DNA from: Acidobacteriota bacterium
GTDB taxonomy: Bacteria; Acidobacteriota; Vicinamibacteria; Vicinamibacterales; SCN-69-37
Reading direction: 5' to 3'
NCBI GenBank assembly: GCA_005799825.1
Contig: SYFT01000006.1
Location: forward strand, 52,130 to 116,129
DNA: 64,000 nt
Shown here: one piece after another, positions 2,490 through 60,199 of the stretch
Position numbering within the stretch: position 1 is the first letter of the stretch
Layout: the number at the start of each line of letters is the position of its first letter
Position numbers and translations under genes: made by a program
Notes under the pieces: generated by a model
Databases searched by the model: none
Seen by the model: the letters and a program-made list of their open reading frames with translations, nothing else
What the model was told of the DNA's origin: nothing

Positions 2490-4610
2490 ATGATTCGTCG
2501 CGGGGTGTCCGTGGGCCTGGCGGCCCTTGTGGTGGCCGCCGGCACGGCCTGGCTGCTGAACCGTACGCCCGCGTACGACCTCAGCCAGCAGGCCGACCAA
2601 AACATCCTGCTCATCACCATCGACACCCTGCGCGCCGACGCGCTGGGGTCGTATGGTGGCAGGGCGGCCACGCCGCACCTGGACGCACTGGCATCACAGG
2701 GCGCGAGGTTCACATTCGCACACGCCCACGCGGTCGTGACGCTGCCCTCACACACCTCCATTCTCACAGGGCAGCTGCCGTACGAACACGGCATGCGCGA
2801 CAACGCCGGCTTTCGCGTGAAAGACGGCACGGCCACACTCGCCACGCGGCTGAAGCCGCTGGGGTTTGCCACGGGAGCTTTCGTCGGAGGTTTCCCCCTC
2901 ACCAAGCGGTTCGGCCTGTCGCCGGGGTTTGACGTGTACGACGACCAGATCAGCGAGATGAAGAGCGACGTGACCTTCACGCTGCCTGAACGGCGGGCCG
3001 ATGAAGTGGTGACACGCGCGCTCGATTGGGTCCGCCGCACGCCCGGAAAGTTCTTCGGGTGGGTGCACGTCTTCGACCCGCATTCCCCATACAAACCGCC
3101 CGCCGAGTTCGCCGGCAAGTCGCCCCGCCCGTACGACGACGAAGTGTCGTGGGTGGACCACGCACTCGAGCCACTGCTGACGCACCTGGCCACGCTGTCG
3201 AGGCCCACCACGGTGATCGTCACGTCCGACCACGGCGAGAGCCTGGGCGAACATGGCGAAGAAACCCACGGCATGTTCGCGTACGAGGCGACCTTGCGCG
3301 TGCCTCTGATTGTGGCGACCATCCAGCCGGCCGGCGCCATCGCGAAGACACGCGGGACAACGATCGACACCCCGGCCCGCCATATCGACATTGCACCGAC
3401 CGTGCTCGATGCCGTCGGCGTTCCCGTCGACCCGAAATGGCTGGGCACATCGTTGCGCCCGCTGATCGCCGATGGCGACGGTCCCGACCGGCCGAGCTAC
3501 TTCGAATCCATGAGCTTCAATCTCGTACGCGGCTGGGCACCGCTCCGTGGCGTGCTGCAGGAACGCACGAAATACATCGACCAGCCGATCCCCGAAATCT
3601 ACGACCTGGCCGCGGACCCGGGCGAGGCAAGCAACCTCGCGACCCGCCAGTCCGACCGCCTTCAAGTACTGACGAATCTGCTCCGCACCTTCAGCACGGC
3701 GCCGCCGGATCGACCGGGACAAATTTCAGCCTCGGAGCGGGAAGCCCTGCGGTCACTGAGCTACATCGCAGGCAGCGCTCCTGAGCGCACGGTGTTCACG
3801 GAAGCCGACGACCTCAAGAACCTGGTCACCCTCGATCGCGACCTGCATCGGGCCTCCGAATTGTTTCGGGAGAATCGAACGGCTGAAGGCGTGCAGATGC
3901 TCCGCAGCGTCATCTCCCGTCGTCCCGACACGGCCGACGCGTATATTTCGTTGGCCTATTCGGAGTGGGAATCGGGCCAGTGGCCGGCAGCGATCGCCAC
4001 GCTCGAGGCGGGCCTGGCGGCCGGCGCCCCTGACCGTGACCTCCGTATCAGGCTGGGCATCTACCTGGCTGAGAGTGGCACCAACCTCCCGAAGGCGATT
4101 GCCCTCCTCGAGTCGCTGCCGGACACCGACGTGGAAGGCCTCAACTCCCTCGGCCTGGCCTATGGCCGCGCCGGGCGCTTTCGGGACGCGATTGCCGCGT
4201 TCCAGAAAATCCTCGCGCTCGATGCCACGAGCGCCCTCGCACACCAGAACATTGCGACGATGCTGCTGGAGGAGGCGGGGAGGCCCGGCGGTGACCGCGG
4301 CGCGAAATTGCGCGAAGCGGAACAGTTCGCGCGACGAGCGGTGGACCTCGACTCGTCACTGGCCAAAGGCTTCACTACTCTGGGAGTCATCCTGGCCCAG
4401 ACCAACCGGAGGCCTGACGCGATCGAAAGTTGGAAGCGCGCAGCACAGTTGGATCCGGAGGAATTCGACGCCCTCTACAACCTGATCGTGTTGCTCGCCG
4501 ACGCGGGCCGCATCGGCGAAGCACGCACCTACGGTGAGCAGTACGTGAGGACGGCTCCGCCGCAACTGGCCGGCGATGTGGAAGCCATCCGGCAACTCCT
4601 GAGGCGATGA
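2490..4610 (+). CDS. membrane-anchored sulfatase-fold (alkaline phosphatase superfamily) hydrolase/transferase fused to C-terminal TPR repeats
   Basis: 706 aa with an N-terminal TM segment. It carries LLITIDTLRADALGSYGG and VVTLPSHTSILTG, where the sulfatase C/S-x-P-x-R box reads T-L-P-S-H, so a formylglycine nucleophile is not expected. TSDHGESLGEHGE is also present. The C-terminal ~250 aa are TPR-like (AYISLAYSEWESGQW, ALAHQNIATMLLE, NLIVLLADAGRIGEA). Confidence 0.8.
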   Translation: MIRRGVSVGLAALVVAAGTAWLLNRTPAYDLSQQADQNILLITIDTLRADALGSYGGRAATPHLDALASQGARFTFAHAHAVVTLPSHTSILTGQLPYEHGMRDNAGFRVKDGTATLATRLKPLGFATGAFVGGFPLTKRFGLSPGFDVYDDQISEMKSDVTFTLPERRADEVVTRALDWVRRTPGKFFGWVHVFDPHSPYKPPAEFAGKSPRPYDDEVSWVDHALEPLLTHLATLSRPTTVIVTSDHGESLGEHGEETHGMFAYEATLRVPLIVATIQPAGAIAKTRGTTIDTPARHIDIAPTVLDAVGVPVDPKWLGTSLRPLIADGDGPDRPSYFESMSFNLVRGWAPLRGVLQERTKYIDQPIPEIYDLAADPGEASNLATRQSDRLQVLTNLLRTFSTAPPDRPGQISASEREALRSLSYIAGSAPERTVFTEADDLKNLVTLDRDLHRASELFRENRTAEGVQMLRSVISRRPDTADAYISLAYSEWESGQWPAAIATLEAGLAAGAPDRDLRIRLGIYLAESGTNLPKAIALLESLPDTDVEGLNSLGLAYGRAGRFRDAIAAFQKILALDATSALAHQNIATMLLEEAGRPGGDRGAKLREAEQFARRAVDLDSSLAKGFTTLGVILAQTNRRPDAIESWKRAAQLDPEEFDALYNLIVLLADAGRIGEARTYGEQYVRTAPPQLAGDVEAIRQLLRR

Positions 4611-9119: not shown

Positions 9120-12100
9120 CTAGAACCAGAGCGTCACGCCGGCGCGGAACACGCGCGGCGGCAGGATCGAGCTGATGCGGTCGATCGGAAGAACCGGGTT
9201 CAACGCCGTACCCAGCTCGCTCAGGTTGTTGCTCGCGAAGCCGAGCACCGGCGCCGAGTTCGTGATGTTGAATCCGTCAAGCGTAAACTTGACCCGGTTC
9301 TGACCGCCCCTGAACGTGAACGTTTTGTTCAGGCCAAGGTCCCACAGGAGCGTCCGCTCCAACCGCGTCGTATCTTCGGGCTGGAACCGCAGCGAGCTGT
9401 AGCTGATCGCGCCCGTGGTGCCACCATACACCTGACCGGGGCCGTTGATAAACATGGTGCGCTGCTGGCCATCGTTCATGTTGAAGTTCGTGGACGCCAT
9501 GATGCCCCAAGGCAGGTCATAGCTGCCGTTCACCTTGAACAGATACCGCGCGCCGGTGTTCAACCCATTGTAGTACTCGAGACCTGTTGGATTGCTGTAG
9601 CTGCCCAATGGGCTGTAGTCATTGCGCTTCTGCAGTGTGAGCGCGATGTTGAGCTGCCACTTGTCGCTGTACCGCTTGTTGAGGGTCAGGTCCACGCCCT
9701 GGTAGGTCTGGTAGCTCAAGCTCGTGTCGGTGACCGACGCGCCGGAGGGTCGCGCCAGCCCCTGCTTCACCACGTAGTAGTTCGCCGATTTGCCTGTCAC
9801 CGGATCTACGTAGACGTTGGGGGTCGTGTCATAGACACTCGACGCGGGAAAGCCCGCCGCCCCAGGCTCGAAGCCGATAATGTAGCCAGCGGTGCCATTG
9901 TCATACCGGCGGTAGATGTAGTCTGCCCCCACCGCCAGGTTGGGCACCAGTTCGTGCGAGGCGCCAACCGTGACTTCCCTCGTCCGGCTGAGCTTCGCAC
10001 TATCGGCCACGCGGTTGCCCGAGGCAACGATTGAGCCGTTCACAAAATTGCTTGGCAAGGCTGCTATGCCGACAAGTTCCGGGCGCTGGATCAATCCATC
10101 ACGATTCGCGTCTGTCCAGCAGCTGGCACCCGCCGTGACGCTGCACGCGCCACTGGCCTGGTTGGGACCCCAGCCCACAATGAAGTTGCCCAGCCCCGAC
10201 AGGGCGTTGGCCAGCGTGATCTTCGTCTGGTAGTAGTAGGACCCTGAGGCCTTCAGCGCCGTCTTGCCGTTGCCAAACAGGTCATATGTCATCGACACCC
10301 TGGGCGAGAACTGATGGAACGCGCGCAATTCTTCGACCTGGCCCGTCAGGGGGCTCAGGCCGCCCGTGGCCCCCTGTTCGCAGTAGCCCGGCAGAATATC
10401 CGGAATAATTTCATTCGCCGTCACGCACCCACCCAGCCACTTGGACTGCTGCCAGTCGTACCGCAGACCCGCGTTCACGCGCAGCCGCTTGTAGCTGTAG
10501 GAATCCTGGATGTAGCCATTGTACGACCACCAGTCGTTGTTGAGCAGGTAGTCGCGGGCTAGTTGCGCCTGGTAGGGCACCAGCCCGGTCGCCCCACCCA
10601 CGGCTGTGTAGGCCCTGCCGTCGCCACAGTTCGCGAGCAAGTTGCCCACGCACTGCACGACCGCCCGGCCGCCGCCGCTCGGGTGCGTGAACGACGTAAT
10701 CGGATTCTTGCGGTAGCCGACGCCGAACTTGAAGCTGTGGTCGCCGCCGAGGACGTTCGTCAGGAACAACGTGCCGTCCGTTTTGATGTCGAGCGACGGG
10801 CGGATGGTCTGGTAGTTACTGAAGAGTGAGCGGCTCAGGTTACCTGTGGTTCGAATCTGCTGCTGCTGGATGTTGAACATGCACTGAGGTTTGTTCGCCT
10901 GCGGATAGGACGACCGGTTGATGTCGCCCGTGTACCGCGTGCCGCCGCAGTCGCCCTGCGTGTCCTGATAGTCCAGGAAGAAGCCGCCGAACACCTTGGT
11001 CAGCGCCGTGTTGAACACGAGACGGTCGCTCGCGATGAACGTGTGCGTGAGCTGGTGCAGCGGGAGCGGGAAGTACTTCCAGTACGTTTCCGACGTCTGG
11101 ATGGTGGTCGCTTCCTTTTCCGTGAACGCACTCGCACCGCGGGCGTTGCGGAACTTGTTGTCGCTCGAGAACTGGTACTGGAACTTGTGCGCCGCATTCA
11201 ACTGGAAGTTCATCTTCCCTTGCTTGTTCTTGAGGACCGTAAGGTCGCTCGACAGGCAGTCCTGCACCGTTGCGAGGTTCCCATAGGTCAGGGTGCCGCC
11301 CGTCAGCAACGTGCCGGCGCGCTGGGCGTCGGCATACTGCACGCAGGCGGGCCGCGCGCGGTCGAAGAAGTTCACAACGCCGGCATTGATCGACGTCTTG
11401 TCGACCGCTGCCCAAAACCAGAGGCGGTTCTTGATGATCGGACCGCCGTACTCGCCCGAGAAGGCGTAAATATTCTTGATCGGCGCGCCCGACAAGAATC
11501 CGCCCGTCCCACGCGAGAACTGCGTTTCGGTCACGTTGTTCGCCTGCATCTGGTCGTTCTGGAACGTGCTCAGCGCCGAGCCCTTGAACACGTTGCTGCC
11601 GCTCTTGGTCACCAAGTTGATCGACAGGCCCGACGACTGCACCGACACGTCGCCGCCGCCGTTGGTCACCGAGATCTGGTCGAACGAGTCAAAGTTGAAG
11701 TACGCCGGCGACGAGTTGGACGAGAGGTCCGTGATTGACCCGCCTTCCAAGTTCCACTGCACGTTGCTACCCGTGCCACGCGACTGCAGGCCGACCTGCT
11801 GGCCCGACGACGAGCCGCCGACGTTGAGGCCCGCCTGCACACCGGGGGTCATGTTGATAATCTGCCACGGGTCGCGCGCGGTCGGAATCTTCTCGAGGAT
11901 TTCCGACGTGAACGTCGCACCCGACGTAGTCTTCTTCGTGTCGACGACGGGCGCCGCCGCCGTGACGGTAAGTTCTTCCGACATCGCGCCAACTTCCATC
12001 TTCATGTCGACGGGCGCGTTAAAGCCGGAGGTAATCACAATACCGTTGCGTACGACCTTCTTGAAGCCGCTCAGTTCAAATGTCACCGAAAACGTGCCGT

Positions 12101-18304: not shown

Positions 18305-20077
18305 ATGACTACGACACCTGCTGTTCGCCGCGGCGCCGACTGGCTGCTCGACTCCACCGCGCCTCACGACGTGCTGACGCCGGAAGGCTTGTCCGACGAC
18401 CATCGGCTCATGGCCAAAACCGCGACTGAGTTTGTGGATCAAGAGATTCTGCCGGCCCTCGATCGGCTCGAGCAGAAAGACTGGACGTTGGCACGGGCGC
18501 TGGTGAAACGCGCCGGCGATCTCGGCCTGCTCGGCACGGATGTGCCCGAAGCCTTCGGCGGCATTGGGCTCGACAAGGCCGCGGCCGTGGTGGTGGGCGA
18601 AGGTATGGGCGGCAGCGCGTCGTTCTCCACCACGTTTGGCGCCCAGACGGGCCTCGCGATTATCCCCATCCTCTGCTTCGGCAGCGAGGCGCAACAGCAC
18701 AAGTACCTCCCGGGCATCGTCTCGGGCGATCTGGTGGGCGCGTACTGCCTGAGTGAAGCGGGGTCGGGATCGGATGCGCTCGGAGCGCGGACGAAGGCCG
18801 TGCGCCAGCCCGACGGCTCGTGGGTGCTCAACGGCGAGAAGATGTGGATCACCAACGGCGGGTTCGCCGATCTCTACATCGTGTTTGCCAAGGTGGACGG
18901 CGAGCAGTTCTCCGCCTTCATCGTAGAGCGCTCGTTTCCCGGTGTCGTGCCAGGCAAGGAAGAACACAAGATGGGCCTGCACGGTTCGTCCACGGCGCCC
19001 CTGGTGCTGCAGGACGCGCGAGTGCCGGCAGAGAACCTGCTGGGGGAAGTGGGTAAGGGCCACAAGATCGCGTTCAACGTGCTCAACTACGGGCGGCTGA
19101 AACTCGCCGGTATGTGCAGCGGCGGGGCGAAGTTCGTGATGCGCGAGGCCACGACGTACGCCACGACGAGGCGCCAGTTCGGACAGCCAATCGCGTCGTT
19201 TGGCACCATCCGCCACAAACTCGCCGAGATGACCGCCCGCGCGTACGGCGTGGAAAGCATGCTGTATCGCACAACTGGCCTGATCGACGAGATGATCGCT
19301 CGCGGGGGCCACACACCTGCGGCGGCGCTGGCCGCACTCGAGGAGTTCGCGATTGAGGCGTCGCTGCTGAAGGTGTCGAGCAGCGAGATGGCCGACTTTG
19401 TCCTTGATGAAAACGTGCAGATCCACGGCGGCAACGGCTTCGTGCGTGACTACGCGGCCGAACGCCACTATCGTGACGCTAGGGTCAACCGGATTTTCGA
19501 AGGGACCAACGAGATCAATCGGCTGCTGGTGCCGGGGATGCTCATCAAACGCGCGCTCAAGGGTGGAGTGCCCATCATTGCGGCGGCCAAGCGGCTGCAG
19601 GAGGAACTGCTCGCGCCCCCGGCCTGTGCAGCCCCCAGCGGGACGACGCCCGCCGAGTTGGTCGCGGCCACTGTGGCCGGCATGAAGAAGACGGCCATCA
19701 TGGTGCTGGGTCTGGCGATGCAGACCTATGGCACTGCGCTGGAAGAACAACAGGAAGTGCTGATGCTCGCATCGGACATCATGATGGACACCTTCATGGC
19801 CGAAAGCTCGCTGCTGCGAGCCGCACAATCGGCCGCGTCTGGATCACCGACCGCCGCGCTCCAGGCGGATGCTGCCGCCGTGCTCACCCATGACGCCGGC
19901 TTGCGCGCGGACGCCGCAGCCCGCACCGCCATCCAGGCCATGACCGGCGGCGACACGCAGCGCACCATGCTGGCGGCGCTGCGGCGCCTGTTGAAAGTCA
20001 CGCCGGTAGACACCATCGCCGCGCGCCGCCGCCTGGCCGACGCGATCGTCAATCGGAAGGGCTATATCTTCGTCTAG
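18305..20077 (+). CDS. fadE: long-form acyl-CoA dehydrogenase (FadE/YusJ-like, about 590 aa)
   Basis: I prefer the ATG at 18305 (MTTTPAVRRGADWLL), in frame with the ORF-track start at 18245. It has YCLSEAGSGSDA, WITNGGFADLY and HGGNGFVRDYAAERHYRDARVNRIFEGTNEI, plus a C-terminal extension. Confidence 0.85.
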   Translation: MTTTPAVRRGADWLLDSTAPHDVLTPEGLSDDHRLMAKTATEFVDQEILPALDRLEQKDWTLARALVKRAGDLGLLGTDVPEAFGGIGLDKAAAVVVGEGMGGSASFSTTFGAQTGLAIIPILCFGSEAQQHKYLPGIVSGDLVGAYCLSEAGSGSDALGARTKAVRQPDGSWVLNGEKMWITNGGFADLYIVFAKVDGEQFSAFIVERSFPGVVPGKEEHKMGLHGSSTAPLVLQDARVPAENLLGEVGKGHKIAFNVLNYGRLKLAGMCSGGAKFVMREATTYATTRRQFGQPIASFGTIRHKLAEMTARAYGVESMLYRTTGLIDEMIARGGHTPAAALAALEEFAIEASLLKVSSSEMADFVLDENVQIHGGNGFVRDYAAERHYRDARVNRIFEGTNEINRLLVPGMLIKRALKGGVPIIAAAKRLQEELLAPPACAAPSGTTPAELVAATVAGMKKTAIMVLGLAMQTYGTALEEQQEVLMLASDIMMDTFMAESSLLRAAQSAASGSPTAALQADAAAVLTHDAGLRADAAARTAIQAMTGGDTQRTMLAALRRLLKVTPVDTIAARRRLADAIVNRKGYIFV

Positions 20078-20082
20078 ATAGT

Positions 20083-20154
20083 GGCCTCGGCCTTGAGGAA
20101 CAGGCCGAGCGACGTACTCGGGACGGTACGTTGCTCGAGCTGGTTCTCAAGCCC
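20083..20154. repeat. REP/MITE-like palindromic element (copy A), probable terminator or mRNA stabiliser after fadE
   Basis: The left arm GGCCTCGGCCTTGAGGAACAGGCCGAGCGACGTAC (20083-20117) is an imperfect inverted copy of the right arm GTACGTTGCTCGAGCTGGTTCTCAAGCCC (20126-20154). The central ACGTAC/GTACGT pair is perfect. Confidence 0.55.
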
Positions 20155-20177
20155 AAGGGACGCGGTAGAATCGTGAC

Positions 20178-20840
20178 GTGCGTCGCGCCCTGATTTTCGC
20201 CCTGACTGCGGCGGCCGTGCTGGCCGCCTGCACCTCTGGTCCGCAGCCCATCGAAGACGGGTCGAATGATCAAAGCATTCTCGCGTGGCGGGCCAGTAAG
20301 GATGCGATGTTCAAGTCGAACGACGATCTGGATGGCGATGGCCAGCCCGATTCGCCGCTGCTCCCGGCCGACAAGGTCGTATTCACCGGACTGCCCTACT
20401 ACCCGATCGATCCCGCCCATCAGATGCCGGCGGTGCTGAACGAAAACCGCTCGCCACGACTCCTCATCGAATTGCCGACATCCTCCACGGAACTGCGGCG
20501 GATGCAGCGCGTGGGCACGTTGACGTTTACGCTGAAAGGCACGACCCTGACGCTGACCGCGTTCGCCGACGAAGGCGCGCGCACGATCACGCGGCTGTTT
20601 GTACCGTTCGGCGATCTGACCAGCGGCACTGACACGTACAAAGGCGGCCGGTACCTGGAGCTCGATCGTACATCGACGACGTTGTACGATTTGGACTTCA
20701 ATCGCGCGTATCACCCGTTCTGTGTGTTCAACCCGTCGTACGTCTGTCCGGTGCCTCCAGGGGAGAATCGCCTGGCGGTGGCCATCCAGGCCGGCGAGCG
20801 TCTGCGCAGCGCCACGTTAAGCGGTCGTAGTCTGTATTGA
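20178..20840 (+). CDS. DUF1684-domain lipoprotein
   Basis: 220 aa with lipobox AVLAAC. The C-terminal motif GGRYLELD ... AYHPFCVFNPSYVCPVPPGENRL is typical of DUF1684. Confidence 0.7.
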   Translation: MRRALIFALTAAAVLAACTSGPQPIEDGSNDQSILAWRASKDAMFKSNDDLDGDGQPDSPLLPADKVVFTGLPYYPIDPAHQMPAVLNENRSPRLLIELPTSSTELRRMQRVGTLTFTLKGTTLTLTAFADEGARTITRLFVPFGDLTSGTDTYKGGRYLELDRTSTTLYDLDFNRAYHPFCVFNPSYVCPVPPGENRLAVAIQAGERLRSATLSGRSLY

Positions 20841-20881
20841 CCCGTTCTGCCGGGCGGTATAGCGTCGGAGAGATCCCTTTC

Positions 20882-23071
20882 ATGCGACATAAATTTCTCA
20901 TTGTGCTGTTCGCGGCGGGCCTTGCGCCCGCGCTCGTGGCGAGTGACTGGCCGGAATCCCGCGGTCCATCGCGGGACGGCACATCGCCAGAAAACAAACT
21001 CCTCTCGCGCTGGTCGCCGGCCGGAGAGAATCTGGCCTGGACGCTGCCCTTCGGCGGGCGTTCCACACCGGTCATTCACGGCAACCGCCTGTATCTGCAG
21101 ACCACCACCGTCGGCGACGTCTCGGTCACGCAGGAGCGACTCGTCGCGGTGGACGCCAACTCCGGACGTGTGCTCTGGGAGCATCGGGTGCCGCAGTTCC
21201 TGAGCGACGTGCCGCAACACCGAGCGGCGTGGGCCTCACCCGCGGTCGATCGGCAAAGCGGCAACATCTACATGTTTACCGTGTCCGCCGAACTCCTGGC
21301 GCTGTCGCCGCAGGGCGCGGTCCTGTGGAAGCGGTCGCTGCCTGAGGAGTACGGCGCGATCACCACCCATGGCGGCCGCACCACCTCCCCCATCATCGAA
21401 GGACAGATGGTCATCCTCAACACCCTGCTGCAGGGTTGGGGCGACCTGGGCCGTCCGGGCAACCGCTACTTCGCTTTCGACAAGACCACTGGCCAGACGA
21501 TCTGGGTCAGCGCGCCGCAAACGCGGCACTACGACACGAACTACTCGAGCCCGATCGTCGCCGACGTCAACGGCATGCGCCAGCTCATCGTGGGCGGCAC
21601 CGACGGCGTGTTTCACGGTCTCAAGGTCACCACGGGCCAGCCGGTGTGGAGCCTGGAAGTCAGCAAGCGCGCCATTCTCAACAGCCCGTTGTTTCGCAAC
21701 AACACGATCTATATCGCCCACGGGGAGGAGAACATCGACACGACGGAGATGGGCATGCTGGCGGCCGTTGATGCCACCGGCACAGGTGCGCTGACCGGCG
21801 CGGCGATCAAATGGAAGACCCATGGCTTCCTGTCGACGTTTGCGTCCCCCGTGATGGATGGTAGCCGGTTGTATGGCATGGACAACGGCGCGATTCTCGC
21901 GGCGGTCGATCTGACTACGGGCAAGGCACTCTGGAAGAAGACACTCGGCACCCTGCAGAAGGGGTCGCCGACTCTGGCCGACGGCAAGTTGTATATCGGC
22001 ACGGAAAACGGCAAGTTCTACATCCTGCGGCCGAGTGCGACGGGCGTGGAAGTCCTAGATGAGGATGTGCTCGGTACGGCGGGAAGTCCCGAACCCATCC
22101 TGGCGTCGCCGGCGGTGGCCAACGGACGGGTATATGTGACGTCGATGGAGCGCGTGTATGCGATCGGGCCCAAACAGGCGACGGCCGCGAGCGCGTCACC
22201 TGCCGCCGCAACACCTGCGGCCTCGTCGGCTCCGGTCGCGGCGGTGCAGGTGTTTCCGTATGAAGCGCTCCTCAACCCTGGCGATAAACAGGCCTTTGTC
22301 GTGCGGCTCTTTGATGCCAACGGTGTGTTCATTCGCCAGGCCAAAGCAGGTGACGTGCAGTGGACCACAGACCAGCTGGCGGGAACAATTGGAGCCGACG
22401 GCGCGTTCGTGGCGCCCGGTGGCGGCGCCGCGGGCTACGTCAAGGCGGCCGTAATCGGCGCGGCCGGGCCCATCACGGGGCAGGCGAGAGTGCGTGTGAT
22501 TCCACCGCTGCCCTGGTCCTACGACTTCGACGGCCTCAAGGCGACTCCCGCGTGGTGGACGTCGAACATGAAGGCGCTACCTCGTGAACTGGACGGCAGC
22601 GGGGTGCTGGTGCGGCCACGCGACGACACCGTGGGCCGGCGCACGAAACTGATGATGGGACGGCCGGAGTGGTCCGACTACACCGTGGAAGCCGACGTGC
22701 GCGGCCTGGTGATGCGACGGCAGCGCGGTGACGTGGGCCTCATCAATCAACGCTACGTGCTGATGATGTTTGGCAACAACCAGAAGATCGAGTTGCAGCC
22801 CTGGCAGGCCGCCAATGAGATGACGGTCAGCGTGGAAAAATTCACATGGCCGGTGGACACGTGGTACCGGATGAAACTTCGCGTCGAGAACCGGGCCGAC
22901 GGCACCACGCTGGTGCAGGGCAAAGTCTGGCCCCGTGACAGGGCCGAGCCTGCGGCCTGGACGATCAAAAAAGTGGACCGCATTCCCCATCGCTCTGGCG
23001 CGCCCGGCCTGTACGGCGACGGCATCTCCGACGTCTTTTTTGACAATTTCAAGGTCTACAGGAATCAGTAG
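20882..23071 (+). CDS. secreted PQQ-like beta-propeller protein with Big_2-like and C-terminal LamG/DUF1080-like domains
   Basis: I prefer the ATG at 20882 (MRHKFLIVLFAAGLAPALVA). WPESRGPSRDG begins the repeated propeller blades (AVDANSGRVLWE, LSPQGAVLWK, DKTTGQTIWV, KVTTGQPVWS, DLTTGKALWK). An Ig-like segment (VQVFPYEALLNPGDKQAF) follows, then a jelly-roll tail ending GISDVFFDNFKVY. Confidence 0.75.
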   Translation: MRHKFLIVLFAAGLAPALVASDWPESRGPSRDGTSPENKLLSRWSPAGENLAWTLPFGGRSTPVIHGNRLYLQTTTVGDVSVTQERLVAVDANSGRVLWEHRVPQFLSDVPQHRAAWASPAVDRQSGNIYMFTVSAELLALSPQGAVLWKRSLPEEYGAITTHGGRTTSPIIEGQMVILNTLLQGWGDLGRPGNRYFAFDKTTGQTIWVSAPQTRHYDTNYSSPIVADVNGMRQLIVGGTDGVFHGLKVTTGQPVWSLEVSKRAILNSPLFRNNTIYIAHGEENIDTTEMGMLAAVDATGTGALTGAAIKWKTHGFLSTFASPVMDGSRLYGMDNGAILAAVDLTTGKALWKKTLGTLQKGSPTLADGKLYIGTENGKFYILRPSATGVEVLDEDVLGTAGSPEPILASPAVANGRVYVTSMERVYAIGPKQATAASASPAAATPAASSAPVAAVQVFPYEALLNPGDKQAFVVRLFDANGVFIRQAKAGDVQWTTDQLAGTIGADGAFVAPGGGAAGYVKAAVIGAAGPITGQARVRVIPPLPWSYDFDGLKATPAWWTSNMKALPRELDGSGVLVRPRDDTVGRRTKLMMGRPEWSDYTVEADVRGLVMRRQRGDVGLINQRYVLMMFGNNQKIELQPWQAANEMTVSVEKFTWPVDTWYRMKLRVENRADGTTLVQGKVWPRDRAEPAAWTIKKVDRIPHRSGAPGLYGDGISDVFFDNFKVYRNQ

Positions 23072-23081
23072 GAATCACGTG

Positions 23082-24515
23082 ATGAAGACACTTTCGCTCG
23101 TCGTGTTGTGTACGTTGGTGGCCACCACTGCTTCGTCCGGGGCCGGCAAAGGTCTGACCGAGTGGCACATGTGGGGCGGGTCACCCGACCGCAACATGGT
23201 GTCGGACGCCACCGGAATGCCCTCGACCTGGAACGTGAAGACTGGAGAAAACATCAAGTGGGTGGCCGCGCTCGGCTCCCAGAGCTACGGCAACCCTGTA
23301 GTGGCCGGCGGCGTAGTGCTTGTGGGCACAAACAACGAAGCCACACGCGACCCCAAACAGGCCGGCGACCGCGGCGTACTGATGGCGTTTCGCGAATCGA
23401 CAGGCGAGTTCATGTGGCAGGCGACCTACGAGAAGCTGACGTCGGGGCGCGCGAACGACTGGCCCTTCCAGGGCATCGCGTCGTCGCCGCTCATCATTGG
23501 CGAGATCGCGTACTTCGTGTCCAACCGCGGCGTGGTGGTGGCGGCCGACATCCAGGGCTTCCACGACAACGAAAACGACGGCGAGTTTAAGACCGAAACC
23601 CTCACCGGCAAGCACGATCCGGACGTCGTCTGGCAATACGACATGATGGAAGAGGTTGGTGCCTTCCCGCACAACCTGGCCAACTCGTCGCCGAATTTTT
23701 ACCAGAACCTGCTCTACGTCTCGACCGGCAACGGCCAGGATGAAAGCCACGTGAACATCCCGTCACCCAACGCGCCGGCCCTCATCGCGCTTGATCGCAC
23801 CACCGGAAAACTGGTGTGGGAGGACGCGTCGCCGGCCGACAAGATCCTGCACGGCCAGTGGTCAACGCCCACGGTCGGCAGCATCGGCGGTGTCGTGCAG
23901 GTCGTGCACGGACAGGGCGACGGCTGGGTGCGCAGCTACGAGGCGCTGACCGGCAAGAAGTTGTGGGAGTTCGACACGAACCCGAAAGATGCCGTCTGGC
24001 CGAAGACGCGCAACGAGATTATTGCCACACCGGTGATCTACGAGGACGTAGTGTATCTCGCCAACGGCCAGGACCCCGAACACGGCGAAGGGATCGGCCA
24101 CCTGTACGCGATCGACGCCACCAAACGCGGCGACATCACGGACACGGGCCGCCTCTGGCACTACACGGACATTCGCCGGACGATTTCGACGCCGTCGATC
24201 CAGGACGGGCTGCTCTACTACCCGGACTTCAGCGGTTTCTTCCACTGCATCGACCTGGAGACCGGCAAGCAGGTCTGGAAACACGACATGTTCGCTGCGA
24301 TGTGGAGCTCACCGATGATTGTGGACGGCAAAGTCTACCTGGGTGACGAAGACGGCGACGTCACCATCTTCCAGCACGGCCTGGAGAAGAAAGTGCTCAA
24401 CGAAGTGAACATGGGCAGCTCTGTCTACTCCACGGTCGTCACCTCCAACGGCGCGATGTTCGTGATGACACGCAATAACCTGTTCGCGATTCAACAGGGC
24501 GCGAAGCGGCAATGA
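23082..24515 (+). CDS. secreted PQQ-like beta-propeller protein
   Basis: I prefer the ATG at 23082 (MKTLSLVVLCTLVATTASS), in frame with the ORF-track start at 22935. Blades include RESTGEFMWQ, DRTTGKLVWE, EALTGKKLWE and DLETGKQVWK. Confidence 0.75.
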   Translation: MKTLSLVVLCTLVATTASSGAGKGLTEWHMWGGSPDRNMVSDATGMPSTWNVKTGENIKWVAALGSQSYGNPVVAGGVVLVGTNNEATRDPKQAGDRGVLMAFRESTGEFMWQATYEKLTSGRANDWPFQGIASSPLIIGEIAYFVSNRGVVVAADIQGFHDNENDGEFKTETLTGKHDPDVVWQYDMMEEVGAFPHNLANSSPNFYQNLLYVSTGNGQDESHVNIPSPNAPALIALDRTTGKLVWEDASPADKILHGQWSTPTVGSIGGVVQVVHGQGDGWVRSYEALTGKKLWEFDTNPKDAVWPKTRNEIIATPVIYEDVVYLANGQDPEHGEGIGHLYAIDATKRGDITDTGRLWHYTDIRRTISTPSIQDGLLYYPDFSGFFHCIDLETGKQVWKHDMFAAMWSSPMIVDGKVYLGDEDGDVTIFQHGLEKKVLNEVNMGSSVYSTVVTSNGAMFVMTRNNLFAIQQGAKRQ

Positions 24516-24661
24516 GGCAATGCCGGGAATGGGCCCAATGAGGCAATGACGCGCGGCCCGATGCGACGGCGTAGCGACCGGGGGGCGATGCTCGTCGCCA
24601 CCATGCTGGCTATTGCCTTCAGCGCCGTCATTGGGCCCATTCCCGGCATTGCCTCATTGCC
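24508..24661. repeat. 34-bp perfect inverted repeat (arms 24508-24541 and 24628-24661, 86-nt spacer)
   Basis: The left arm is GGCAATGAGGCAATGCCGGGAATGGGCCCAATGA. The right arm TCATTGGGCCCATTCCCGGCATTGCCTCATTGCC is its exact reverse complement, checked base by base. The 10-mer AATGAGGCAA/TTGCCTCATT occurs four times (24511, 24538, 24650, 24689). Confidence 0.9.
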
Positions 24662-25778
24662 TACTGGCTTATTGCCCAATTGGCTCTTTGCCTCATTTCA
24701 ACAGGCCGCTCCTGCCCCCGCCCACTGGCCTCAGTTCCGCAACTCCCCCACGCTGACCGGCGTGGCGGCATCCCCGCTGCCGGCGACCTTGCGCCTGCTG
24801 TGGACCTATGAGGCCGGCTCGGCGATCGAGTCTTCAGCCGCGGTAGTCGATGGTGTGGCGTATGTGGGCACGTCCGGGGGCGCGCTGGTGGCGATTGATG
24901 CAGCCAGCGGGAAGCTGAAGTGGTCCTACCGGGCGACGTCTGACGACCTGGGTATCGGCGAATCGTCGCCAGCGGTGGCCAATGGCGTAGTGTACATCGG
25001 CGATCTCTCGGGCGTGTTTCACGCGGTAGACGCGGCCACTGGCAAGGCGCGCTGGACATACAAAACCGGCGCGGAGATCAAATCATCACCGGTGGTGGCC
25101 GGCCACACGGTCCTGATCGGATCGTACGACGGTCATTTGTACGGTTTGAACGCCGTGACGGGCGCGTTCCGCTGGAAAGCCGGCACCGACAACTACGTGC
25201 ATTCCACGCCGGCCATCTGGAACGGAGTGGCGTACTTCGGCGGTTGTGACGAGGTGTTTCATGGCGTCCGCATCAGCGATGGCACCAAAGTGCTGTCCAT
25301 GGCCACGCAGGCCTACACAGCCGCCTCACCAGCCATCGCCGCCGGCGTGGCGTACTACGGCACATTCGCGAACGAGGTGGTGGCGGTAGACATCGCCGCG
25401 AAGCGCGTGAGGTGGCGGTTCATCGATCCCGACCGCCAGTTCCCGTTTTATTCGTCAGCCGCTCTCAGCGTCAGCGGCAACGGCGGAACCATGGTGCTGG
25501 GCGGCCGCGACAAGAACGTGCGTGCCATCGACATGGCCACCGGGAAACAGCGCTGGTCGTTCACCACCCGGGCGCGGGTGGAATCCTCACCGGCCATCGC
25601 AGGCACCCGCGTCCTTGTGGGGTCAAGCGACGGCAAGCTCTACGTGCTCGATCTTGCCTCAGGCAAGAAGCTCTGGGAGTTCGATGGCGCCGCGCCCTTC
25701 ACGGCCTCTCCTGCTGTCGCCGATGGGCGCGTCATCGTCGGTGACGGAGACGGACGCCTGTACGCCTTCGGTCAGTAG
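24546..25778 (+). CDS. secreted PQQ-like beta-propeller protein (start codon uncertain: 24546, 24561 or 24588)
   Basis: 410-aa [16 protein letters not shown] begins the blades ([59 protein letters not shown]). The three candidate ATGs all lie in the loop of the inverted repeat. Confidence 0.7.
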
Positions 25779-26217
25779 GCCGGAAAAGACTCGCGACAGT
25801 GTAGGCTACTCTGGCTATGGACATAACGAAGCCCATGCCTGAGCTGGTGGCCATTCTGTCTGCCAGGTACTTTGCAACGGGCGCATCGAGGTCGAGTTGT
25901 CCCGCATCGATCAGTTGAAGCGCGAGCGCCGCAACAAATGTCTTGCCTGTACTACCGGCCAACAGCAAAGCGTCGGAGATCAACGGCGTCTTTGTGCCGC
26001 GGTCAGCCACACCCGCGACGGCGGGGATCATCCGGCCGTCAGCAAGGACGATGCTCACCGATACGCCGGGCACCGACGACTACGCGTGCCACTCACGCAG
26101 GTAGGCTTCAACGCGCGCTTGTGGTGTTGCGCCTGCCGGCGCCACCTGAGGCGGCGCAGTCTGCGCATGCAACGGCACGCAGGCGATCGCCGCCACAACG
26201 AGCAAACGACGGATCAC
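25732..26217 (-). pseudogene. decayed serine hydrolase (beta-lactamase family) gene: in-frame TAG and 3' truncation
   Basis: Minus-strand translation from the GTG at 26217 gives VIRRLLVVAAIACVPLHAQTAPPQVAPAGATPQARVEAYLREWHA, then TAG (26082..26080), then SSVPGVSVSIVLADGRMIPAVAGVADRGTKTPLISDALLLAGSTGKTFVAALALQLIDAGQLDLDAPVAKYL. The S-x-x-K motif (STGK) is present. Family-like sequence stops around 25865 and the reading frame then runs into the end of the propeller gene. Confidence 0.6.
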
Positions 26218-26303
26218 ACAGAGACGCTGAGACGCAGCAGTTCCTGTTCAAAGCCCCAAGCCAGCGACCTCAGCATCTCAACACTTCCTCTGATCCGTCG
26301 TGA

Positions 26304-26822
26304 TCACCGATGCTCTCGTGTCCATGTCAGCGCCGCGATTCCCGGCGCCCAGGCAACCGTCCACGCGACGAGATGCCAGAGGTAGTTGCGTGACTCGGGG
26401 TGATCCGTCCAGATGCCCGAGACACGATAAAATATCAGCCCGCTCCCAATCGCGGCCAGCGCACCGGGCACAAGCCAACGACCGGCCGCGACGAGCGCGC
26501 CCTGCAGCCATGCGGCGACCGCCGCAAGGAAGATCCACATGAACACCCAGGCGGCAATCAGGGCGCCCAGATAGCCCGCCAGGCCGACGACCGCATAAAA
26601 CGCGAGGGCCCCGGCCACGCCGGCCGCCACGCCGCCGGCCGCGCCACGCACCACCGATCCTGCGTGATGCCCCAACACCAATCCGACAGCCAGCAACAGC
26701 GCGGCGCCATGCAGGACGCCATGCGCCGGCGTATGGCGCACGCCGAACTCGAACCAGACGTAGTCGCCGAGCGTGGCGACGAAGGCCACAAACACCACGC
26801 GCGCCAGCAGGATCAACACCAC
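26304..26822 (-). CDS. hypothetical polytopic membrane protein
   Basis: 172 aa with about 5 hydrophobic helices (ARVVFVAFVATLG, GAALLLAVGLVLG, ALAFYAVVGLAGYLGALIAAWVFMWIFLAAVAAWL). It starts 9 nt after the MFS stop. No family recognised. Confidence 0.5.
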   Translation of the reverse strand: MVLILLARVVFVAFVATLGDYVWFEFGVRHTPAHGVLHGAALLLAVGLVLGHHAGSVVRGAAGGVAAGVAGALAFYAVVGLAGYLGALIAAWVFMWIFLAAVAAWLQGALVAAGRWLVPGALAAIGSGLIFYRVSGIWTDHPESRNYLWHLVAWTVAWAPGIAALTWTREHR

Positions 26823-26830
26823 GAAAAGTC

Positions 26831-28204
26831 CTATTCGGGCAGGTCCGTGCCCTTGGGTTCAGGCAGGAAACAACTGAGGCCGAAGCCCGCGATGTACACA
26901 AACGTCGCGACGATCGTGGCCGCCATCGCCAGTTGCACGTGAGGCGCGCCACCGAGGTTCGACGCGAGCGTGGTGGTGACGAAGGCGAATCCAGTGCCGA
27001 GCATGCGGCCGCCGACATTTGCGGCAAATGCCTCTCCCGTGCCACGCAGGTGCGTCGGGTAAACGCGCGGCAGATAGTTGCCCCAGAAACTGAACTGCGC
27101 CACCGTGAACAGGCCCGCGAAGAACATGCCTATCTTCAGCGTGTCGAGACTCGACGTAGGCGCGAACCAGAACACGAGTGGCACGACGATGATTCCAGGG
27201 ACCTGAAACACGCGCAGGAGGCCTCGTCGGCTGGCGATGACAATCACGAGCATCGCCAGCAGCGTACGGCCGGCCAGGCCACCAATCTCCTGCCACCACT
27301 GCACAGCAGCCGACTGCTGCTGCTTCATGCGGCCGCTCTCGGCACGCCATAACGCCGCGTCAGGCGCATCCTGCGGCATCGGACGTTCAGGCGCCATCAT
27401 GACCACGTCCGGTGTGGCCGGCACAATGCGCGGCATGTGCTGAATAGCCCCGAACGCTGCACCATATGAACACGCGAACATGAGCGTGGTAACGATGGTG
27501 GTGCGACGCAGTTCGGGGCTGAACAACTGCGCCACACTGGGCCGGCGCAGCGTGCCGGCCTGTTTCTTGGCCAGCCACGCCGGTGACTCCGGCAGGAACG
27601 GCCGGATGATGATGAGCGGCAGGGCCGGCACCACGCCTGACATCAACGTGTAGCGCCAGGCTTCGTGTGCGCCGTAGATCTCGGGCAACGACGCCGCGTT
27701 GGCCAGAATCCACACACTGGCAGCCGTGACGAGAGCGCCACCCAGGGAAGAAAACGCCTGCGTATAACCAAGCACCTTCTCGCGCTGCTTCGCGTCCGGG
27801 AAGAGCTCCGCCAGCCAGGAGACTGCAGCCACAAATTCCACACACACGCCGATGAACGTCAGGCTGCGGAAGAAGAGGAACTGCCAGATAGTGGTGCTGA
27901 ACCCGGCCGCGAACGCGGAGAACGCGTAGAGGAGGATGCTCCATGTGAGCACGCGGCGGCGGCCCAGGCGATCGGTGAGATAGCCACCAAGCAGGCCGAA
28001 GATGCCGCCGGCGATGGCCGGCACCCACAACATCACGCCGACCCAGTCGTTGTAGGCCGGCGTGCCAGGTGCCACATTTACCAGCTCGCGCAGTGCCGGC
28101 GCGATAATGAGCGGCAGCATCAACAATTCGTAGATATCAAACGCGAAGCCGATGGCCGCGATTACGCAGATCAGCCATTGCGTGGATGTGAGCCGGTTCG
28201 TCAT
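26831..28204 (-). CDS. MFS transporter (paralog of 31674..33020)
   Basis: 457 aa and 12-TM-like, with the MFS signature GGYLTDRLGRRRVL. Confidence 0.85.
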   Translation of the reverse strand: MTNRLTSTQWLICVIAAIGFAFDIYELLMLPLIIAPALRELVNVAPGTPAYNDWVGVMLWVPAIAGGIFGLLGGYLTDRLGRRRVLTWSILLYAFSAFAAGFSTTIWQFLFFRSLTFIGVCVEFVAAVSWLAELFPDAKQREKVLGYTQAFSSLGGALVTAASVWILANAASLPEIYGAHEAWRYTLMSGVVPALPLIIIRPFLPESPAWLAKKQAGTLRRPSVAQLFSPELRRTTIVTTLMFACSYGAAFGAIQHMPRIVPATPDVVMMAPERPMPQDAPDAALWRAESGRMKQQQSAAVQWWQEIGGLAGRTLLAMLVIVIASRRGLLRVFQVPGIIVVPLVFWFAPTSSLDTLKIGMFFAGLFTVAQFSFWGNYLPRVYPTHLRGTGEAFAANVGGRMLGTGFAFVTTTLASNLGGAPHVQLAMAATIVATFVYIAGFGLSCFLPEPKGTDLPE

Positions 28205-39012: not shown

Positions 39013-39889
39013 CGTCGGCCCCTGGAACCGCATCCTCGTGCGTCACGTGCGCCAGGCGTTTGTGGATGACGCAATGATCGCCGGGCAATGGCAGTCGCTC
39101 AATTTCACCGCGGCGCCAGATTTCGGCAAGGCCGTCGAGCAGTACGAGCGGTTCGTGGAATTGCTGAGCACAGGCGCGCCTGTGTACCAGTGCGCCAGCA
39201 GATCCGAGCACCTGAACCTGGACTCCATCTATGTCCGCGACGCCTCGGTCATGTGTGCCAGGGGCGCTATTCTCTGCCGCATGGGAAAACCCTTGCGCGA
39301 CCTCGAACCCGCGGCACTTGCCGAAACCTACCGTGCGCTCAGCATTCCCATCGTCGGCGTCATCGAAGCACCCGGAACACTTGAGGGCGGCGATGTCACG
39401 TGGCTCGGCCCGCGACTCGCGGCGGTGGGCCGCAGCTACCGCACCAACGACGAGGGCATTCGACAGCTTCGCCTCCTGCTCGGCGACACGGTTGATGAGC
39501 TCATCGTCGTTCCCTTGCCTCATTTCCGGGGGCCGGGTGATGTGTTTCATCTGATGTCGATCATCAGTCCCGTGGACCATGACCTCGCAGTGGTGTATTT
39601 ACCTCTGATGCCTGTGCCGTTTCGTGAACGCCTGATCGGGCTCGGCTACACGCTCGTAGAGGTGCGCGATGAGGAGTTCAATTCCATGGGCGCGAATGTG
39701 CTGGCGATTGCCCCCCGCAAGTGCCTGATGGTCGAAGGCAATCCCAGGACACGCGCAGCACTTGAACGCGCCGGCGCCGAGGTGCTGGCCTACGACGGGT
39801 CGGAGATCTCGCTCAAGGGCGGGGGAGGTCCTACTTGTTTGACAAGACCCATATCACTGGGACACTGGGGAACTGTACACACTTCGTAG
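39005..39889 (+). CDS. guanidino-group-modifying enzyme (DDAH / arginine deiminase / amidinotransferase fold)
   Basis: 294 aa with LDSIYVRDA, TLEGGDV, GRSYRTNDEG and HLMS. The C-terminal catalytic-Cys box is ISLKGGGGPTCLTRPI. It overlaps the permease stop by 8 nt. Confidence 0.7.
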   Translation: MSDVGPWNRILVRHVRQAFVDDAMIAGQWQSLNFTAAPDFGKAVEQYERFVELLSTGAPVYQCASRSEHLNLDSIYVRDASVMCARGAILCRMGKPLRDLEPAALAETYRALSIPIVGVIEAPGTLEGGDVTWLGPRLAAVGRSYRTNDEGIRQLRLLLGDTVDELIVVPLPHFRGPGDVFHLMSIISPVDHDLAVVYLPLMPVPFRERLIGLGYTLVEVRDEEFNSMGANVLAIAPRKCLMVEGNPRTRAALERAGAEVLAYDGSEISLKGGGGPTCLTRPISLGHWGTVHTS

Positions 39890-43999: not shown

Positions 44000-44101
44000 G
44001 GCCTCGGCCTTGAAAACCAGGCCGAGCTACGTTCGGGAGGATCGAGCTACGTTCGGGAGGGTCGGGCTACGCACGCGCGGATCTCGATCCGGAACGTAGC
44101 C
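44000..44101. repeat. REP/MITE-like element (copy B) with internal 20-nt tandem duplication
   Basis: GGCCTCGGCCTTGAAAACCAGGCCGAGCTACGTTCGGGAGG is followed by ATCGAGCTACGTTCGGGAGG, then GTCGGGCTACGCACGCGCGG. An inverted CCGGAACGTAGCCC lies at 44089-44102. Confidence 0.6.
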
Positions 44102-60106: not shown

Positions 60107-60199
60107 GGGCTTGAGAACCAGCCCGAGCTACGTTCCGGATCGATATCCGCTCGTGTGTAGCCCGGCCCTTTCGAACGTAGCTCGGCCTGGATTTCAAGG
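60107..60199. repeat. REP/MITE-like element (copy C), best-preserved inverted pair
   Basis: The left arm is GGGCTTGAGAACCAGCCCGAGCTACGTTC (60107-60135). The reverse complement of the right arm GAACGTAGCTCGGCCTGGATTTCAAGG (60173-60199) is CCTTGAAATCCAGGCCGAGCTACGTTC. Confidence 0.65.

Follow-up and report, generated by a model that had tools for sequence, protein, structure and literature searches.

The window analysed here is a stretch of 64,000 nucleotides (nt) from an Acidobacteriota bacterium (assembly GCA_005799825.1, contig SYFT01000006.1, positions 52,130 to 116,129). It carries three tandem genes encoding PQQ-like/BamB-like beta-propellers (Pfam PQQ_2), and an earlier note on this DNA had drawn attention to a 34-bp perfect inverted repeat at the junction of the second and third of them (genes 2 and 3). 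A point absent from that note is that each arm belongs to an 8-nt tandem array (Tandem Repeats Finder, period 8). The locus is an instance of stop-codon-anchored arrays of 7-9-nt units, which are common at Acidobacteriota gene boundaries and often stand head-to-head with a downstream inverse copy. The 34-bp repeat is probably the best-matching register between two opposed arrays of a dispersed octamer repeat, kept complementary by processes acting at the DNA level. A perfect hairpin in coding sequence may pass for a bespoke regulator; here it would represent one register of a genome-wide repeat process. The features concerned are the following.

24508-24541, forward strand: 5′ arm of the perfect inverted repeat, containing the last codon of gene 2 and its TGA.
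24542-24627, forward strand: 86-nt loop with local helices of its own; the ATG of gene 3 falls here, as do the charged and the hydrophobic segments of its signal peptide.
24628-24661, forward strand: 3′ arm of the perfect inverted repeat, encoding gene 3 codons 28-39 at the end of the hydrophobic core of the signal peptide.
24508-24549, forward strand: 5′ tandem array, (GGCAATGA) x5, period 8 (Tandem Repeats Finder).
24647-24697, forward strand: 3′ tandem array, (CATTGCCT) x6.5, period 8, inverse complement of the 5′ unit (Tandem Repeats Finder).

The inverted repeat proved to be as first described. A repeat finder and a separate ungapped search gave arms of 34 nt each at 24508-24541 and 24628-24661, 100% complementary and separated by 86 nt. 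Sequence and translation also place the gene 2 TGA (24513-24515) in the left arm, all three candidate ATGs (24546, 24561 and 24588) in the loop, and part of the gene 3 signal peptide in the right arm, all as had been claimed. This is the longest close inverted repeat of the 64 kb. When the window was searched for further copies of the 34-mer with up to three mismatches, only the two arms were found, and none in shuffled sequence. The earlier view that a non-random structure encloses the start of gene 3 was right. The fold-energy calculation that had been proposed gave -132.7 kcal/mol for RNA from 24480 to 24720 (z = -6.8), and single-stranded DNA from 24500 to 24670 gave -68.1 kcal/mol (z = -9.5). 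The stem comprises 34 perfect pairs, extended to 39 in the minimum-energy RNA fold.

Two independent Logan assemblies, SRR8894382 and SRR8894379, both end at window position 24537, which corresponds to the arm start plus k-1 (arm start plus 30) for k = 31. Such breaks are expected at a perfect inverted repeat longer than k, and therefore indicate that the repeat is present in other read sets and is no assembly artefact. The window differs from contig SXQS01000035.1 of GCA_005793715.1 at three positions over 21 kb.

Smaller repeats around the arms were also located. The 10-mer AATGAGGCAA/TTGCCTCATT, said to occur four times in and next to the arms, lies at 24511 and 24537 on the forward strand and at 24649 and 24688 on the reverse strand, with one additional copy in the window at 39515. 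The direct repeat TTCAACAGG, described as flanking the whole structure, does occur at 24490 and 24697, and lengthens to 13 nt at 92% identity, but it does not adjoin the arms, from which it is 9 and 35 nt distant. The immediate flanks are ...GAAGC before the left arm and TACTGG after the right arm, with no duplication. In the sister lineage the repeat reads TTCAACAGG against TTCAAGCGG. The likeness between the flanking peptides LFAIQQGA and LFASFQQAA is not kept in relatives, and is absent from L088, L090 and L091 (loci compared with the window are given by L numbers).

Both arrays are built from a single octamer, inverted in one relative to the other, so that they can pair in several registers, of which the perfect 34-mer is one. 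Further inverted pairs from the repeat finder give the 3′ array alternative registers at 24644-24659 and 24685-24697. The 5′ array begins on the gene 2 stop codon and bears both the Shine-Dalgarno (SD) sequence and the ATG of gene 3; it contains TGA in all three reading frames (24513, 24539 and 24547) and ATGs at 24512, 24520, 24529, 24538 and 24546. The 3′ array, which may be written (TCATTGCC)n, occupies the tail of the signal peptide of gene 3, where constraint is weak. The locus thus has a 7-8-nt unit in about four or more copies (5.0 and 6.5), a purine/G-rich sense strand at a stop codon, and a convergent inverse array. It does not have the four or more GGG tracts of a G-quadruplex: GGCAATGA contains GG runs only, and the left arm two GGG runs.

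Inverted repeats of this kind were counted by an ungapped anti-diagonal scan of the window and 80 related loci, 630 kb in all. The scan yielded 82 inverted repeats, against 1 in a block-shuffled control. Most left arms began 0-50 nt past a stop codon. Co-directional genes flanked 37 of the repeats and convergent genes 18, and 13 lay within genes. The 5′ arms were purine-rich in 47 cases and pyrimidine-rich in 12; for periodic arms the corresponding figures were 12 and 0.

The octamer itself is dispersed in metagenomes. At least 120 metagenome stretches carry (GGCAATGA)x3, with unrelated flanks and with two or three sites on several contigs. Family statistics were drawn from 82 sites among the metagenome matches listed, and the counts in this paragraph are limited to those matches. 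An inverse array lay downstream at 29 of the 82 sites and upstream at none, and a long open reading frame (ORF) stopped at or just before the array at 56. Among the downstream ORFs, 20 were co-directional, nine of these starting on the ATG of the last unit, and 21 were convergent; a convergent gene follows 21 of 63 GGCAATGA arrays. The earlier note had reckoned with the 34-mer being a common dispersed repeat of no positional preference. It is the octamer unit, and not the 34-mer, that is common and dispersed, and its positional preference is strong. A restriction of the arrays to genes for secreted proteins was considered and dropped, since the genes that follow GGCAATGA arrays are of mixed kinds and a third of them are convergent.

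Adjacency of genes 2 and 3 is widespread across Acidobacteriota, and comparison of the junctions, which the earlier note had called for, gave a divided result: some relatives share the architecture, while several close relatives lack it. In the sister lineage L004-L007 (91% amino-acid identity) the coding arm differs from that of the window at 2 of 34 positions and the intergenic arm at about 14 of 34. The intergenic array of L004 pairs in a shifted register, about 27 nt further downstream (31 nt, 87%), and shows matched lineage-specific changes, CAGTGA on one side and TCACTG on the other. At the L090 junction GGAAATGA x4 stands opposite TCATTTCC-type CATTTCC(C/T) x5, and at that of L091 CAACGAGG stands opposite CCTCGTTG. 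The long-range helix is kept in all five of five lineages, with 13 pairs altered on both sides, and the RNAalifold covariation term is unfavourable (+0.84). Paired arrays persist across lineages down to about 71-77% amino-acid identity. Other orthologues have unrelated units at the equivalent junction (AGATGACG, ATGGGGG, GGGAATC, AAGCC.. and GAAGGATAC), that of L016 being built of GGGAATC, and CAAAAGG is also among the units at orthologous or neighbouring sites. A binding array for a regulator, one of the roles that had been suggested, is therefore unlikely: units such as GGAAATGA, AGATGACG, GGGAATC, CAAAAGG and GAAGGATAC have complementarity in common, not sequence.

Neither 5′ array nor hairpin is present in the relatives L008 (the nearest species representative, at 95% amino-acid identity), L009, L010 and L018, whose junctions are short, with a stop codon that overlaps the start, and whose signal peptides are ordinary. 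L009 nevertheless keeps a degenerate 3′ array, together with the MTR start and the signal-peptide core. The earlier note had considered that loci without the element might keep the same gene 3 N-terminus; at array-lacking orthologous loci it is different and shorter. Junction folds reached z < -3 in 12 of 59 adjacent gene 2-gene 3 pairs, against 2 control segments within gene 3. On these sequence comparisons the junction structure is recurrent and long-lived in one clade, yet dispensable.

When L008 3500-3640 is compared with window 24507-24725, the spacer and signal peptide of L008 are wholly unrelated and about 110 nt shorter, whereas the mature proteins are 95% identical; homology restarts exactly at the WPQFR codons, like the replacement of an entire junction cassette. 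In L013, which has two array sites, the gene 3 orthologue itself (4065-4156) ends ...ATT GGG CAA TGA. These last codons open a perfect (GGCAATGA)x4 array as its first unit, and an inverse array follows 24 nt on. The conserved C-terminal Gly-Gln-stop of the propellers may seed arrays.

The mismatches between arms were used to distinguish pairing in DNA from pairing in RNA. If pairing were selected in RNA, G:U mismatches in the sense transcript should exceed A:C mismatches. Counts of G:T and A:C were 28 and 30 for the inverted repeats of related loci in co-directional contexts, and 50 and 83 for the GGCAATGA family. The lack of a sense-strand wobble bias, together with the asymmetric divergence of the arms and the shifted register, fits replication slippage plus intrastrand template switching, and points to homogenisation of the arms at the DNA level. 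Slippage would add and remove array units, and template switching or gene conversion between the arms would periodically restore perfect complementarity; for the lineage of the window, the likeliest course is that the coding 3′ arm served as template for renewal of the intergenic 5′ arm. Base-by-base selection on RNA would then be unnecessary for the complementarity of the arms.

Template switching can create, maintain and repair perfect hairpins in one step (PMC8794818). In quasipalindrome correction, or template-switch mutagenesis, replication uses one arm as the template for its partner in a single event, giving perfect arms and multi-base 'compensatory' changes (PMC8794818, PMC5941160). 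Such mutagenesis (Ripley; Lovett; Monttinen and Loytynoja 2022; Lavi et al. 2018) fits the 34/34 match, the faster-diverged intergenic arm and the lack of a G:U bias; it is a mechanism and not an element family, and its fit to this locus is one of arm comparison and not of ancestral reconstruction. Compensatory double changes and conserved pairing, the usual signatures of a functional RNA, can thus also be produced by template switching between arrays.

It is conceivable, although we are doubtful of it, that the hairpin is a selected cis-regulatory RNA, its pairing being kept by selection as a gate on gene 3 translation or as a site of RNase III cleavage or decay, and its repeat nature being incidental. 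The very stable RNA fold (z = -6.8) and the presence of the SD sequence within the stem of predicted folds would suit such a role, as would a duplex of adequate length for RNase III. Pairing of an intergenic array with early coding sequence is moreover kept in five lineages in spite of differing sequences and registers, and the 12 of 59 orthologous junctions with z < -3 compare with 2 controls. However, the sense strand shows no G:U-compatible excess over A:C mismatches, the closest relatives L008, L009 and L010 manage without the structure, and the covariation term is unfavourable. Arrays of this type also stand before convergent genes and without a partner array, and cutting of the 3′ arm by RNase III would ruin the gene 3 message.

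Rather unlikely, in our estimation, is a purely neutral origin, in which arrays and complementarity are mutational debris tolerated in the spacer and in the permissive signal-peptide tail, with no effect on expression. The variable presence of the structure among close relatives, the variation of repeat units from site to site and the lack of an RNA-type mismatch bias would agree with this, and heptamer repeats have been ascribed to polymerase slippage (PMC4692102). A hairpin of about -130 kcal/mol that pairs the SD sequence is nevertheless unlikely to leave translation or mRNA decay unaffected, and the family's strict polarity and its anchoring at stop codons argue for at least a strong filter.

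The metagenomes also contain a discrete palindromic element of 133-174 bp with unrelated flanks, of the form GTTAATG-(GGCAATGR)n-CAATACAAACGCTTGTC-variable loop-GACAAGCG..TATTG-(CCYCATTG)n-CATTAAC. It is carried by L095, L104, L151, L164, L169, L117 and L152, the last having two copies (10107-10239 and 11696-11847). The element is always edged by G-TTAA...TTAA-C, and these edges may represent a TTAA target. It looks like a family resembling MITEs (miniature transposable elements with inverted repeats) or REPINs, with the same octamer arrays as arms.

That the structure in the window is a decayed mobile element of MITE- or REPIN-like type with GGCAATGA arms, inserted at the ancestral junction and partly absorbed into the coding sequence of gene 3, seems very unlikely to us. 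The palindromic element in its unrelated flanks and its two copies on L152 speak for this origin, and the right array of the window ends in CATTTCAAC, which resembles CATTAAC. On the other side, the GTTAATG/CATTAAC termini and the inner CAATACAAACGCTTGTC motif are both absent from the window, no target-site duplication adjoins the arms, and L009 has a degenerate 3′ array but no 5′ array. The MTR start and signal-peptide core of the loop are also found in L009, and the loop is therefore host sequence and not element sequence. The suggestion that a small palindromic insertion had split or re-headed a gene likewise finds no support, as there is no target-site duplication, the arrays are homologous to the junction arrays of relatives, and the MTR start and signal core lie in the loop.

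An invertible DNA switch appears most improbable. Here a recombinase would flip the 86-bp loop between the arms, and the OFF orientation would lose the gene 3 start codon. Perfect inverted arms of typical switch length do bracket the start codon, and hand translation of the flipped loop gave no in-frame start. No recombinase or integrase was present by Pfam content among the called genes for about 10 kb on either side, however, and the arms are tandem arrays common to hundreds of sites, many with loops of 2-30 nt that are unable to invert. In L001, an independent assembly running through the loop, the orientation is that of the window; the Logan contigs end inside the left arm and so do not show one. 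A scan of JGI metagenomes for arm-N70-100-arm, with the loop in either orientation, found zero copies and is thus uninformative on inversion.

Several known identities were tried and rejected. For a MITE with TTCAACAGG as a 9-bp target-site duplication, the repeat lies 9 and 35 nt from the arms and is not conserved in L004, and therefore does not represent such a duplication; nor were multiple near-identical copies found, the 34-mer being unique in the window and the arm-loop-arm pattern absent from JGI metagenomes. For a REP or REPIN, the arms lack a GTAG or CGTC head, neither arm is a palindrome in itself, and no RAYT-like gene was seen among the called genes of L001. For an intrinsic terminator, there is no T run, the 3′ arm being followed by TACTGGCTTATTGCCC, and a terminator scan of 20000-27000 found nothing here. 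Rfam 15 gave no match at gathering score in the whole window, and a permissive scan of 24300-24900 returned only sub-threshold plant microRNA-precursor and small RNA models, which amount to generic long hairpins. Neither a recombinase nor a transposase was found among nearby called genes by Pfam.

The genes and signals at the junction are listed below.

23082-24515, forward strand: gene 2, a secreted PQQ-like/BamB-like beta-propeller of 477 amino acids, with its last sense codon and stop (CAA TGA) within the first repeat unit.
24546-25778, forward strand: gene 3, a PQQ-like beta-propeller of 410 amino acids, 30 nt after gene 2 and in the same reading frame.
24546-24548, forward strand: likeliest start codon of gene 3; the ATGACG/MTR start is conserved in L004, L009 and L013.
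24540-24543, forward strand: SD-like GAGG of gene 3, which the minimum-energy folds of RNA and DNA alike show as paired, at the inner end of the long stem.
24512-24541, forward strand: mini-ORF 1 (MRQCREWAQ*), whose ATG overlaps the gene 2 TGA (ATGA, 24512-24515) and whose TGA overlaps the next ATG (ATGA, 24538-24541).
24538-24549, forward strand: mini-ORF 2 (MRQ*), whose TGA overlaps the gene 3 ATG (ATGA, 24546-24549).
24520-24549, forward strand: another mini-ORF (MPGMGPMRQ*), with the same terminal TGA as mini-ORF 2.

The start of gene 3 is most likely the ATG at 24546, in the last unit of the 5′ array. An exact-protein look-up returned no record for either the 410-amino-acid or the 396-amino-acid form of gene 3, whereas gene 2 is recorded. 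The stem reaches 24544 in the minimum-energy folds of both RNA and DNA, so that the gene 3 SD sequence is paired in these predictions. Translation shows three ATGA stop/start overlaps in succession, leading from the stop of gene 2 to the ATG of gene 3. The window has the full chain; L090 comes close to it, its first ATG lying 4 nt past the stop, and comparable relays occur in L011 and L012.

Among the functions proposed in the earlier note, a translational gate seems the most defensible, given the pairing of GAGG (24540-24543) in the folds and the chain of ATGA overlaps. On an mRNA spanning genes 1, 2 and 3 the hairpin would probably limit independent initiation at gene 3 and make it depend on ribosomes arriving from gene 2. 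A very stable stem-loop would bury the SD sequence at its inner end; ribosomes would pass from the gene 2 stop by way of the 9-codon and then the 3-codon mini-ORF to the ATG of gene 3, opening the 5′ arm on their way. If relay and sequestration of the SD sequence both hold, gain or loss of repeat units would tune gene ratios within operons in a simple and evolvable way. We think it distinctly unlikely that the paired arrays are a selected device for translational coupling, in which the string of minimal ORFs walks ribosomes along and unzips the hairpin that hides the SD sequence, and the 3′ array was recruited as coding sequence.

Cleavage of the stem by RNase III, which had also been proposed, could occur on structural grounds. 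The enzyme needs an uninterrupted RNA duplex of about 20 bp or longer, a length that a perfect 34-bp duplex provides, and the 34 perfect pairs would make a suitable substrate. As codons 28-39 of gene 3 would be cut as well, the effect would not simply be to uncouple the two cistrons.

Several points weigh against the interpretation that the 34-bp repeat is a register of dispersed arrays maintained at the DNA level, or against the mRNA-level effects set out with it. The 64-kb window has one octamer array site, the dispersal being seen in metagenomes and not here. Concerted change of both arrays is equally expected from selection on pairing, and the comparison of G:T with A:C mismatches has modest numbers, young stems being unbiased either way. 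The paired arrays have lasted through several lineages and at some price to the encoded peptide, which suggests that, mutation apart, they are of some benefit or are at least tolerated. In L004, whose gene 2 ends in TAG with no ATG overlapping that stop, only part of the relay exists. Many units of the class contain no ATG or TGA, and 21 of 63 arrays precede convergent genes, so the relay is no general role of the class. At the mRNA level we infer throughout for this organism.

Between genes 2 and 3 there are one in-frame TGA and 10 sense codons, and readthrough of the stop would fuse both propellers. As L004 has a second in-frame stop, this arrangement of frames is probably a coincidence. The homologue P0009 (550 amino acids, from a 59-kb ENA contig) is a single ORF in which the C-terminal part of gene 2 continues into gene 3 through an out-of-frame stretch, VYSTVDHRQRRDVRDDDG; the probable cause is a frameshift or an error of assembly at this point, and not a true fusion. 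A gene split or fusion was rejected, the peptide likeness being missing in L088, L090 and L091 and the sole 'fused' homologue, P0009, looking frameshifted.

Searches of the literature on heptamer or tandem inverted repeats in Acidobacteria found no account of the class for this phylum. The feature belongs to a known but poorly understood kind of repeat reported in other phyla; the form seen here is an octamer with stop, SD sequence and start in one unit. The STRR sequences of cyanobacteria, reportedly described by Mazel et al. in 1990, are said to be intergenic tandem heptanucleotides which, when present on both sides, can lengthen a helix, as in helix P12 of RNase P RNA. They belong to another phylum and have different units, and we know of no described link between them and stop or start codons. 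In Rickettsia palindromic elements a long near-perfect inverted-repeat arm is translated within a protein, in a permissive region. Near-perfect inverted-repeat arms are likewise translated as parts of proteins in the coding palindromes of Nematomorpha (PMC6649704). Both these systems have two coding arms or are mobile insertions, whereas here the 3′ arm alone is coding and the arms are repeat arrays.

Closest in kind are the heptamer repeats GGGAATC of Xanthomonas and GGGGAYT of Nostoc, which are intergenic, lie within 50 bp of stop codons and have no known function (Rehm et al. 2015, PMC4692102). They form 70-75 convergent pairs per genome, which are potential stem-loops (PMC4692102). Shared features are tandem 7-8-nt units, typically in four or more copies, with a G/purine-rich sense strand at or within about 50 bp of the stop, a preference for gaps between co-directional genes, a nearby inverted second array, and length and sequence that vary between close relatives. 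The present repeat differs in being an octamer with GG runs only, and so without the G-quadruplex property that defined the repeats in that study, and in coming from another phylum. Its unit moreover bears stop, SD sequence and start, its 3′ array lies inside coding sequence, and concerted evolution of its arrays is documented.

Direct TAACTGA repeats occur in Beggiatoaceae, Cyanobacteria and Bacteroidetes, and a role in translation has been proposed for them (MacGregor 2015, PMC4679880). Like the 5′ array they provide stops in all three frames when in forward orientation, overlap the upstream stop, end a few nt from the downstream start and vary by whole units; unlike it they are heptamers with little Shine-Dalgarno character, and have an inverse partner in 1 of 170 sets. 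REP/BIME and REPIN sequences, which are associated with RAYT (PMC3733652), are also short dispersed intergenic palindromic repeats, often found right after stop codons. Here, in contrast, there is no GTAG/CGTC head, the arms are not individually palindromic, units vary by site and a RAYT transposase gene was not seen among the called genes of L001. Nearer to REPIN than the window feature is the metagenome subfamily GTTAATG...CATTAAC. In the malE-malF spacer, REP sequences influence how strongly the genes of one operon are expressed relative to each other. Stop-codon-anchored 7-8-nt repeats with inverse partners, as in genomes of the Xanthomonas, Nostoc and Beggiatoa type, are thus extended to Acidobacteriota.

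Arrays at related loci are also translated as parts of secretion signals. In the gene 3 orthologues L057 (3354-3494), L039 (2827-2960), L047 (2871-2955) and L034 (2859-3017), and in L058, L069 and L060 (about 2830-2985), both arrays are translated, the purine-rich 5′ array as a charged N-terminal region (for example GRIRRRAKDTKERTKERTKERR) and the pyrimidine-rich 3′ array as a hydrophobic core (for example SFVSFVSFVSFLSA and LLPFALCLLIFAFCLLPF). In L058, L069 and L060 the arrays lie on either side of a twin-arginine motif (SRREFL). Inverted arrays of Acidobacteriota may repeatedly build or extend signal peptides in this way, the 5′ arm giving the charged part and the 3′ arm the hydrophobic part, as in L057 (RIRRRAKDTKERTKERTKERR / SFVSFVSFVSFLSA), L039 and L047. 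Array arms translated as signal-peptide segments may suggest a route by which secretion signals are lengthened or renewed. The regularities at family level, the possible ribosome relay and this link to signal peptides are what merit further attention, the locus itself being one instance.

Other palindromic sequences were seen at these loci. L039 contains a near-perfect palindrome of about 190 bp (4069-4260), with 91-nt arms, a 10-nt loop and 1 mismatch, whose inner part is a (CAAAAAAGG)n array and whose outer part is unique sequence. Three more inverted repeats or array pairs occur at the same locus, at 1472-1585, 2835-2961 and 4052-4324. The window has a second dispersed palindromic repeat, with the motif CTTGARAACCAGSCCGAGCTACGTTC, at 44010-44100 and 60110-60198. 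At the first site it forms a 20-nt tandem repeat of 2.5 copies (44023-44071), and at the second a 26-nt inverted repeat at 88% (60110-60135/60173-60198).

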